From NCBI GenBank assembly GCA_964016885.1, contig OZ024747.1, forward strand, positions 64,356,001 to 64,420,000: 64,000 bases of DNA. The letters run 5' to 3'. This document shows positions 11,112 through 36,704 of this stretch, piece after piece (within the stretch, counting starts at the first letter, position 1; every line of letters starts with the position of its first letter). The notes beneath the pieces are model-generated. The model made no database searches, had not been told where the DNA came from, and worked only from the letters and a program-made list of their open reading frames with translations. A program made the position numbers and the translations under genes. Source of the DNA: Eledone cirrhosa (taxonomy: Eukaryota).

Positions 11112-11241
11112 AACGAAAGAAATGTGGTAAGGAACTAGGTGGACCATAACGCACCAGAGTCCTCGATACTATGGGTAGTAGAGTGGGTAATAGGAAAAGA
11201 GTCCGGACTCCTTTCCTATAACCCACTCTACTACCCATAGT
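11112..11241 (-). mobile_element. Fold-back family A, copy 1 (loopless palindrome 11168-11241 plus tail abutting (TA)n)
   Basis: ACTATGGGTAGTAGAGTGGGTAATAGGAAAAGAGTCC|GGACTCCTTTCCTATAACCCACTCTACTACCCATAGT; tail matches the copies at 25.5 and 36.5 kb. Confidence 0.8.
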
Positions 11242-11822
11242 TTCTTGGGTATATTAATTTTAATACATTTTATCTATCGTGTAGTTATTTCATATGTTTA
11301 TTAATGCATGATGCTTTAATTATTTTTTAATTTTGACAACTTGGCTGGTAGGATTTTCCTTCAATTCAATGTTCAAACCAAGCTCAGCTGGTGATTATTG
11401 TCTTTGTTTTGTAGAATGGAACTGTTTGATATTGCTTCAAAATGTTGCTTTCACGTCGTCTTTGTTTCGGTGTTTAAAACATATATTACCAATATATTGG
11501 CTATACAAAACCTGTCAAAACGTAATATATCTTCATCAGTTATTCATAATCCTTGCTTAGACTTACACTCAGAATACAACATCAAATCCTCTACACACAG
11601 TAGCAGATCTCCACTTGATATGTGTCGTATCGGTGTTGTTATATTTATGAGAGTATAGTGCGCCGATATACTAGAATATTCATGTGTATAGACAAGAAGC
11701 TAGAACACAAAGACACCTCATCAAATAGATGCACTTTATTAAGTGTTTCACCACATCGTTTACTATTTAATAATAATCCAAACTTTCGATAGTGTCGTTC
11801 ATATTCTCTTGCTCGCGTCATC

Positions 11823-11862
11823 AACCGGATTTGATAAGGTCATAACCTTATCAAATCCGGTT
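11823..11862. repeat. Perfect 18-bp inverted repeat with 4-nt loop
   Basis: AACCGGATTTGATAAGGT-CATA-ACCTTATCAAATCCGGTT. Confidence 0.95.
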
Positions 11863-12069
11863 AAATTGTCTCTGTAATAGCACAGTTGTCGAAATTATGT
11901 TTGTACTAAAAGGGAGATTCTGGGAAAAATTGGTGTTATTTCTAGTTTACAAATGAAAGGCATGGGACTTTGAAATTAACTATTTTTTTTGCATTTGTAT
12001 TTGAGAGAGATTTAATGTATTTGAGAGAAATTTAAAAAATCGTTGCGGGGTAGTTTCAGTTTGCTTTGG

Positions 12070-34700: not shown

Positions 34701-35712
34701 CTGTCTCGGTTGTCCGGGTAATTGCATTTCGAGTTGCTTTAGTTTGGCGACTAAGTCGTGGTCTTTTTTTGGGTGGCATGACCGTAGATTCAAAGAATGT
34801 GTTTGGTAGCGAACATTTTCAAATGAGCTTTGAATTAGTTTAAAGTGGGTACTATATTGTAGCAGGACCGAACACGTAAATATTTATGCAGGTAATGGAA
34901 CATGAAAGGGGGAATAGCCAAAACTTTCAATTTAACGGTGAGTAAGTGGAAAGTGAGTACTAAGTAAGATCTATGAAGAGTGCACGTCAAATAATAGGTC
35001 AAACCTGTAAGCCAAGCCTGTCTGAGTTATATCACAAAAGAGCGTAAACAGGGGCGTTATTTTGGAGCACACTGGAAAATAAATCATCGAAATCGGACGT
35101 TCGTTAAAAAAGGTTTCTCATTAATTTTTTATCTCATATTGAGAAAAACAAAGAAAGAAAAATTACAAAAAGGACAACAATAAAATATAATGTCTTTGTT
35201 GAGATTCAAGTAAATTAACGCTTAAGCGTCGTTATTGTTACGTTTATTGTTTTATAAATTCATCTGTTGCTTTTGAATATTTGTTATTTGATGTAAAATG
35301 TAACGTTGAGAGAGCAGTATGTATTTAGTGTTATCGGCTTTTACAATTTTGATATTTGATGTATGATGTACGAAGAGGGTGAATGATCTATTATAGAGAG
35401 AGAAGATTTGTCGTTGTTCTAAACTGTAATGGAGGCGGAAGCAGTAACCTTTTTAAGAGAGTTGCGGAGGAGATTGAGGGTAGTGAGAGGAATGAAGCGT
35501 GTAAGAGAGAGGGTTACAGCATGTATTTAGTTTTATCGATTGTCTTTCATAGAAGCAGGGCATTTTTGGCAAAAGTAATTACGCTGTGACCTGCCCTGGT
35601 AAATTTGGAGTACATTGGAAAAGAAATCATCAAAAACGGTAGAGAAATGTGGAATTGCATAAAAATCATACACACACACAGACAAACATCTACCGTTTTA
35701 TATATAGAGAGA
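31778..35712 (-). mobile_element. Helitron, internally deleted, both termini present
   Basis: 5' TCTCTCTATATATAAAA at 35712; 3' hairpin CCGAGCAACGCCGGG then CTAG at 31781-31778; A|T target; RepHel fragments inside. Confidence 0.9.
31969..34470 (-). pseudogene. Helitron RepHel (HUH Rep plus Pif1-family helicase) pseudogene, frameshifted and deleted
   Basis: N-terminal CCSDGK (33712-34278); Rep motifs GRPDLFITSTCNPKW and VEWQKRGLPHAHLLI (32987-33274); FYLRLLL (32425-32721); helicase C-terminus RRLQFPVKLCFSMSINKTQGQT..HGQLYVACSRV (31969-32397). Confidence 0.92.
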
Positions 35713-36539
35713 TATACACATATAACGTACATATATTTATATACTTGCATACACACACAACAATTGTATACAGACATATATGTACATTTGTATGTGTATA
35801 TAAACAAACATGCTCTGAAACACGGGCACATACACGCATAGTGAGATTATCTTCTAAAGTTTTTCAATATGAAAGACTAAAATATATTATGTCCAGGTGT
35901 ATTATTTAATATATTGTAATGACTTTAGTATATAAAAGCCTTTTAATGATATTTACAATAACATTTATATGATGTTAAAATATAATTAGTTTTGATTTAT
36001 AAAATAATATAAGCGGAGTTAGAATAATAAGATTTGGAGTTAGAATAATAACATTGGGTTTGTTTCAAAATTTTCTTTTTCTTGGAATAGAAATATATTG
36101 CTATAGATTAGTTCTAAGTACATCAGACTAAATTATCTGGTGATAAATTACAATTTAATTTGCAATGTATTACTCGATCTTCATTATCATTACATAAAAC
36201 ATTACCTACATGTTTTTTTCTCTTCTGATTGAATACTTGTTTTTAATATATGTCAACTCTGTAGATGAGAAAGATGTTTCAAGAGGAGCTATTAGATGAT
36301 TAATTTAAACTTTTTAGAATCGGTATGTCAGATCAGGTGAAACGAAGTGTTACAGGTTATCATGTAAACCAATGCTAGTTGTTTTTAATATTCGAGTTTT
36401 GAGTTACTAAACACTTTAATCTCACCCTGGGTGCAATGATGGGACATGATACAATATTTGTATACAGGCAAGCGAAATAAAAAAGAAAGCAACGCCTATC
36501 CATCAAACATATAAATGGATCTATCTATCTATCTATCTA

Positions 36540-36704
36540 TTTCGACGGCCATTTCTGGATGCCAGAAATAGCCGTCGAAACGGCTATTTCTGATCTCTGC
36601 CGTCGGGGTCTTGAACCATTTCCTATTACCCACACTTCTACCCTAAGTATTGGGTACTCTGGTGCGTTATGATCCACCTGGTTCCTTACCACACTTCCTT
36701 CGTT
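36540..36704 (+). mobile_element. Fold-back family A, copy 3 (double snap-back plus tail to (TA)n)
   Basis: TTTCGACGGCCATTTCTGG-ATG-CCAGAAATAGCCGTCGAAA then ACGGCTATTTCTG; tail CCTATTACCCAC...GGTTCCTTACCACACTTCCTTCGT(TA)n. Confidence 0.8.

Follow-up and report, generated by a model that had tools for sequence, protein, structure and literature searches.

This study investigated a family of short repeats, here called family A, in a 64,000-nt window (the whole stretch of DNA analysed, from contig OZ024747.1 of Eledone cirrhosa), which is AT-rich eukaryotic DNA dense in microsatellites. The results suggest that the family A copies are probably 3' ends of a Penelope-like element (PLE) left by an extreme 5' truncation, to which an inverted arm was added by snap-back of the cDNA. 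This reading draws on a constant 3' end together with a variable 5' end, the lack of terminal inverted repeats (TIRs), arms that match their own copy, half of a hammerhead ribozyme motif, a precedent among neighbouring elements in the same window, and the literature.

Three copies of family A, 132, 182, and 164 nt long, were identified (Table 1), and neither blastn nor an nhmmer profile found a fourth copy in the window. Their tails, 93–99 nt in length, end at (TA)n and share a pairwise identity of 79–83% (78/97 columns for copies 1 and 2, 82/99 for copies 1 and 3, and 74/94 for copies 2 and 3). In blastn searches within the window, the tails matched one another with E values of 1e-20 to 1e-25, far beyond chance. 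Copies 1 and 3 stop at the same base and copy 2 approximately 6 nt earlier (TTCGT, CTTAC, and TTCGT at the ends of copies 1, 2, and 3), and the 5' ends vary. A (TA)n run abuts the 3' end of all three copies and lies on both sides of copy 2; target-site duplications (TSDs) are unreadable inside these runs. The first-pass annotation had described a shared tail followed by (TA)n at three places, and the tail identities, the E values, and the abutting runs bear this description out. The positions it gave were right to within 3 nt, copy 1 being correctly located with an end (11241) that fell 3 nt short of 11244. The tail sequence that it quoted fits copies 1 and 3; copy 2 deviates from it at several positions and ends sooner, as noted above. 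PLEs may carry an optional 3' extension of 30–40 bp; among these three copies, no difference of 30–40 nt between 3' ends was seen. None of the three contains a direct tandem of the pseudo-long terminal repeat (pLTR) type, which insertions so short need not have, and the plus-strand frame of the tail is interrupted by stops in every copy.

All three copies carry a partial inverted duplicate of their own 5' end, adjacent to it at the 5' end. In no copy does the arm span the full length, and it differs in size (40, 52, and 19 nt in copies 1, 2, and 3). In copy 1, the arms 11165–11204 and 11205–11244 meet with a spacer of 0 at a loopless GTCC/GGAC and are identical at 37 of 40 positions, the arm possibly continuing to approximately 11251. 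Copy 2 folds around a 7-nt loop, CGGATCT (25577–25583). Copy 3 is folded twice, with an outer fold (36540–36558/36562–36580, loop ATG, 18/19) and a nested inner one (36563–36575/36580–36592, loop CGAA, 13/13). The three different fold points proposed earlier were therefore found as described.

We then compared each arm with its possible templates. The copy 1 arm matched its own copy at 37 of 40 positions and the other copies at 32/40 and 29/40, and the outer 22 nt of the copy 2 arm scored 21, 20, and 18, its own copy being the best. In each case the arm duplicates sequence on the 3' side of the fold and resembles its own copy most closely. Such a geometry points to a free 3' end that primed on the strand carrying it, rather than to twin priming. 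In the 5' inversions that twin priming produces in L1, upstream sequence is inverted. Family A resembles these inversions in having an inverted 5' segment on a truncated retrocopy, but its arm duplicates sequence downstream of the fold. These findings agree with the earlier proposal that a 5'-truncated cDNA snapped back on itself.

In copy 3 and in the copy 2 arm, a sequence resembling the 3' half of a type I hammerhead ribozyme was observed. The 3'-half features of this type (C11.1-GAAA, a helix III closed by A15.1-U16.1, and an NUH triplet) are present in both. In copy 3, helix III has 5 bp, is closed by A-U, and is followed by a GUC site. The copy 2 arm, on the minus strand, holds a less decayed half hammerhead than the main strand, with GAAA at 25569–25566 and a GTC site at 25549–25547; its helix III has 4 bp before a mismatch and is likewise followed by GUC, and its helix loop is unlike that of copy 3. 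The blocks GTCGAAACGG and GCCGTCGGGGTC are kept in copy 3 and in the copy 2 arm, while the helix III loop is unalignable. Among 5000 dinucleotide shuffles, 0.3% yielded a half core with a helix III of at least 5 bp for copy 3, and 1.6% yielded one with at least 4 bp for copy 2. When a GC filter was applied, the half-core pattern occurred 3.0 times per shuffle and 8 times in the real window, 4 of these in family A.

The putative ribozyme also corresponds in position to the limits of the copies. The distance from the predicted cut to the 3' end is 93–99 nt. The homology of copy 1 to the other copies ends 0–3 nt from the predicted cut, and an alternative reading of its bases 11205–11211 makes them the first 7 nt downstream of that cut. 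In copies 2 and 3, the fold is centred where helix II would be. The family A copies are not complete ribozymes. Five other one-mismatch matches to GTCGAAACGG in the window were ruled out as family members by their context or by nhmmer. Rfam gave no hammerhead match in copies 2 and 3, a result that is uninformative, since the complete motifs at 3609 and 51091 escaped it as well.

To judge from sequence, the window is rich in PLE-type elements with a fold-back at the 5' end, and family A is of the same build. We measured 11 local fold-backs in the window, of which 3 are family A; those at the 5' ends of other families have spacers of 0–142 nt. Two of them are large and consist of inverted GIY-YIG-like 3' ends, and both contain outward-facing frames with GIY-YIG-like motifs and hammerhead-like motifs downstream of the frame. 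In the fold-back at 49780–51235, the inverted pieces extend further outward, and a minimal hammerhead with an extra base after the core lies at 51091 (+) and 49928 (-). The fold-back at 53861–57612 has a 28-nt spacer holding repeats of the first bases of the arm, and a hammerhead-like motif is found near each of its outer ends, including that at 53957. The motif near 53912/57561 was considered as a precedent for a long helix III and was dropped, as a complete motif results from an alternative register in which helix III has 3 bp and helix I has 10 bp. The GIY-YIG-like frames received Atlas feature scores of 0.94–0.97 and fell in clusters that have 13–18% GIY-YIG members or are named for GIY-YIG; a Pfam GIY-YIG match, below the cut-off (E 0.0049), was given in one of four such frames. 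Word-index protein searches returned no homologues of two of the frames. Family A and these neighbours share no sequence.

A smaller fold-back, at 3493–3709, has TA runs on both sides, and its fold lies immediately 5' of a complete minimal hammerhead whose helix III is palindromic. The minimal hammerhead at 48798–48903 is of the U3-A8 type, which has been described (PMC4209133). Of two full-motif hammerhead scans of the window, one returned 4 matches, compared with 2 in a control of 20 shuffles, and the other likewise 4, compared with 8 in a control of 30 shuffles. A match to the full descriptor with short helices, found in both scans at 7917 (-), may be chance or another PLE end.

Table 1. 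Coordinates of the family A copies, their parts, and the neighbouring fold-back and hammerhead elements in the window.
Feature	Position	Strand	Remarks
Family A copy 1	11113–11244	-	132 nt
Copy 1 (TA)n at 3' end	11100–11112	.	
Copy 1 tail, fold centre to 3' end	11113–11204	-	
Copy 1 inverted arm	11205–11244	+	37/40 to own tail
Family A copy 2	25525–25706	+	182 nt
Copy 2 (TA)21 on 5' side	25486–25527	.	Arm end TAT runs into TA run
Copy 2 inverted arm	25525–25576	-	44/52 columns identical to own strand
Copy 2 fold centre	25570–25590	+	7-bp stem and 7-nt loop; would occupy the place of hammerhead helix II
Copy 2 main strand	25584–25706	+	Decayed half core, 93-nt tail (25614–25706), then (TA)n
Family A copy 3	36540–36703	+	164 nt
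Copy 3 outer inverted arm	36540–36558	-	18/19, joined to (TCTA)n run
Copy 3 inner hairpin	36563–36592	+	13 bp, CGAA loop
Copy 3 putative half hammerhead	36576–36604	+	C, GAAA (36577–36580), helix III (36580–36584 with 36599–36603), predicted cut after 36604
Copy 3 tail	36605–36703	+	99 nt
Copy 3 (TA)49 at 3' end	36704–36801	.	
Head-to-head fold-back of GIY-YIG-like 3' end	49780–50440/50576–51235		Arms 650/657, spacer 135 nt
Near-complete second fold-back of GIY-YIG-like 3' end	53861–55652/55681–57612		1715/1773, 21 gaps
Perfect 108-bp fold-back	3493–3709		108/108, 1-nt loop; tail probably to ~3795
Minimal hammerhead, U3-A8 variant type	48798–48903		76 nt before long TA run

On the basis of these features, the formation of a family A copy may be described as follows. 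A GIY-YIG endonuclease would nick a TA run, as the flanks and the GIY-YIG-like neighbours suggest, and reverse transcription would begin at the 3' end of the element, in keeping with the constant 3' end observed. Reverse transcription would halt after approximately 100–145 nt, at or near the predicted cut in copy 1 and in the helix II region in copies 2 and 3; the stop positions are visible in the copies, and the ribozyme at them is putative. The 3' end of the cDNA would pair with a nearby complement and be extended by 19–52 nt, twice in copy 3; the products are present in the DNA, the order of events is presumed, and reverse transcriptase or the host polymerase theta could act. The new end would finally join the left flank. 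At the end of the copy 2 arm, TAT merges into (TA)21, and we infer that this 3-nt microhomology served the joining.

Several results weigh against this reading. No parent element of family A was found within the window, and a protein search with the minus-strand frame of copy 3 gave no candidates. A degenerate tail pattern had 0 matches in prokaryotic genomes and 0 in plasmids and phages, and two 12-mers are absent from the supplement of PMC8557442. In copy 2, 7 arm substitutions are clustered in 18 nt (P 0.004), and the core is retained in the arm rather than in the main strand; decay, a consensus error, or a second template could each be the source of the clustered mismatches. Fold-capable sites of at least 4 bp are frequent along the tails (16, 13, and 12 in tails of 123, 93, and 92 nt), and a fold at a local hairpin consequently says little, being expected anywhere. 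As to the hammerhead, none of the three copies has the CUGANGA box or helix I, and full-motif scans found no match in them. The half-core pattern, recognised after the fact, has approximately 10 occurrences per shuffled window against 6 in the real window, and nested folds alone can build such a helix. Helix III is short and palindromic in most animal PLE hammerheads (PMC4209133), and the 5-bp helix III of copy 3 is therefore unlike most of these. To these points may be added two results of related searches: a profile of the three plus-strand frames, run against 1.84 billion proteins, gave 3 weak multi-stretch matches with a best stretch of 13–20 profile positions, and two core motifs are absent from the searchable part of the PMC4209133 supplement.

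A further difficulty concerns the proposal of the first-pass annotation that the arm would be made anew at each insertion. The family A copies are 17–21% apart, and if all of this divergence had followed insertion, approximately 20 arm differences would be expected; 11 sites were observed (P about 0.02). The probable explanation of this deficit is that the copies derive from different source lineages or that the palindromes were homogenised. Each source lineage could carry a fixed fold, and under such a scheme each fold would have arisen once and become fixed in a small non-autonomous subfamily that was copied whole by PLE proteins, three subfamilies having been sampled here. Non-autonomous PLE derivatives do exist (PMC8557442; 10.64898/2026.07.22.740005), and the distance between the copies would be in line with such subfamilies. 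Nevertheless, unrelated families in the window also fold at their 5' ends, which indicates a recurrent process, and long hairpins would be expected to hinder reverse transcription; we regard an origin from fixed folds as unlikely.

The family A tail could instead belong to another non-LTR element or to a short interspersed nuclear element (SINE) that targets TA runs, its likeness to a hammerhead being a side effect of repeated fold-backs. Around CGAA, GCCGTC is found twice; in copy 3, the supposed helix II arm is complementary to the helix III loop; only half a core is present; and the pattern is common across the window. Moreover, R2 shows snap-back as well (PMC11371274). This explanation is quite unlikely, given that copies 2 and 3 have in common a block ending in GUC at the very site that forms the 5' limit of copy 1, and that the PLE-type neighbours have the same build. 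ARAGORN found no tRNA in the window, and the head of a SINE would be lost through truncation. The family A sites hold no tandem array and no complete hammerhead, the hallmark of a non-LTR retrozyme. An origin from a PLE is also compatible with a palindrome that arose when an antisense RNA primed itself or when synthesis jumped to a second RNA as template, rather than through first-strand snap-back, as has been put forward for head-to-head PLE inversions (PMC3846280). At 5 of the 8 columns that differ, the copy 2 arm does agree with copy 3 more closely than the main strand of copy 2, as a second template could explain; however, for this arm, the outer 26 columns match its own copy bar one gap, and short partial arms with a fixed 3' end fit synthesis from the 3' end. 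Both of these routes are very unlikely.

The copies are short, palindromic, and flanked by TA, and a Helitron remnant is present at 31969–34293, so a derivative of a DNA transposon was also considered, be it a miniature inverted-repeat transposable element (MITE), a foldback element, or a non-autonomous Helitron. Non-autonomous Helitrons are marked by a 3' hairpin followed by CTRR and by a 5' TC. The family A copies have no CTRR end and no blastn match to the Helitron remnant. TIRs were not found in family A, the first and last 25 nt scoring 5, 6, and 4, values reached by 68%, 40%, and 74% of 1000 shuffles. Uniform ends with a defined TSD, as in MITEs, were not seen either, for the 5' ends and lengths vary across the three copies. 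The first-pass annotation was right in excluding a MITE with fixed TIRs, in view of the missing TIR, the near-constant 3' end, the variable 5' end, and the unequal arm lengths; a DNA transposon of any of these kinds, already largely refuted, is highly improbable. Fold-back chimeras are a known sequencing artefact, and the clustered mismatches of copy 2 could be consensus error. It is barely credible that the folds are sequencing or assembly chimeras, as the divergence of the arm from its template amounts to 7.5% in copy 1 and 15% in copy 2, and the folds lie at element boundaries. Family A resembles a truncated PLE insertion in the way it works, and PLE membership is probable.

We consider it doubtful that the hammerhead sets the fold points, which would thus record cleavage in vivo. 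Two GIY-YIG-like neighbours fold inside the coding region, and the element at 3493–3709 folds just 5' of an intact motif. PLE hammerhead cleavage was not required in vitro, and RNA reads with an end at the cut were not found (PMC11167929). A search of titles and abstract openings found no publication linking fold points to hammerheads. If the ribozyme did set the folds, the fold points would constitute a genomic record of PLE hammerhead cleavage in vivo that shapes insertions; without this link, family A is an unnamed family that behaves as PLEs are known to.

Most of this biology is known, the self-priming idea and inverted 5'-truncated copies having already been published for PLEs. PLEs, defined here together with MITEs according to PMC8969392, show strong 5' truncation, an adjacent inverted 5'-truncated copy, a (TA)n bias, and unreadable TSDs (PMC8557442). 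Their hammerheads sit in pLTRs (PMC4209133), and palindromes at inverted junctions of Penelope have been read as self-priming on an antisense template (PMC3846280). PLEs are abundant in an octopus (PMC13282606), and the SINE-like family and TA richness of the window would suit a cephalopod. Family A shares with the endonuclease-containing PLEs (Neptune, Naiad, Hydra, and Penelope/Poseidon) a fixed 3' end, strong 5' truncation, a head-to-head inverted duplicate with a junction palindrome, a (TA)n target without a readable TSD, and, close to the 3' end, a motif like that of a hammerhead. Elements other than PLEs also insert into (TA)n or AT-rich sequence. It differs from them in having no open reading frame or tandem pLTR and in holding only the 3' half of a putative hammerhead, with a helix III longer than in most animal PLE motifs. 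In the anole PLE (PAc), the cut lies 26 nt into the open reading frame and reverse transcription starts at +111–118, some 85–92 nt away (PMC11167929), a distance that the 93–99 nt between the predicted cut and the 3' end in family A resembles.

Comparable processes have been described outside PLEs. R2 insertions in cells have cDNA snap-back junctions, and in the R2 PRINT junctions, as proposed for family A, the 3' end of the cDNA primes on the cDNA before the 5' junction is formed and leaves an antisense stretch (PMC11371274). R2, in contrast, targets 28S rDNA, and its junctions come from cell experiments, whereas family A lies at (TA)n and its process is deduced from fossils. Snap-back synthesis-dependent microhomology-mediated end joining (SD-MMEJ) is a host repair route described at I-SceI breaks, in which a short inverted repeat primes limited synthesis, creating microhomology with the other end, and repeated rounds can yield a double fold such as that of copy 3 (PMC5728401). 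Although these are I-SceI breaks and not retroelement cDNA ends, SD-MMEJ could be the host route that makes the arms. The animal non-LTR retrozymes, which have been linked to pLTRs, are similarly short, non-coding, and PLE-related and carry a type I hammerhead, but they form tandem units with complete hammerheads, and family A is solo, truncated, and folded back (10.64898/2026.07.22.740005).

What is new here is the putative half hammerhead in copy 3 and the copy 2 arm, with a possible link between fold point and ribozyme; neither the half hammerhead nor the probable parent class had been named in the first-pass annotation. The formation of PLE inverted ends and the role of PLE hammerheads are unsettled in the field, and short fold-back copies offer a cheap natural data set for both questions. 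Among the best 150 of the 525 Rfam rows for the whole window, nearly all are sub-threshold microRNA models, as are the best Rfam matches of copies 2 and 3; to annotation pipelines such copies resemble MITEs or microRNA hairpins and are probably often misfiled.

The window contains further repeats. Fold-backs of unrelated sequence were observed at 44–213, 11823–11862, 36795–36888, 37282–37374, and 45218–45531, three of them directly beside TA runs. That at 36795–36888 shares its TA run with copy 3, and that at 45218–45531 contains a decayed CTGATGA motif, its spacer being 142 nt long. Inverted arms at 51793–51904 and 52008–52119, 95.5% identical over 112 nt, face a central (TA)30. The Helitron coding remnant on the minus strand is broken, with matches to Helitron_like_N (E 2e-42) and Pif1 2B in separate frames. 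A SINE-like dispersed family of approximately 200 nt, 70–94% identical and unrelated to family A, occurs at 2279–2496 and approximately 13 further loci, for example 6093–6287, 23874–24056, 41963–42170, and 42292–42483. A two-copy repeat (328–394 and 14839–14904, 88%) begins in each case right after a TA run, and a tandem duplication of 141 bp with 84% matches lies at 14984–15263.

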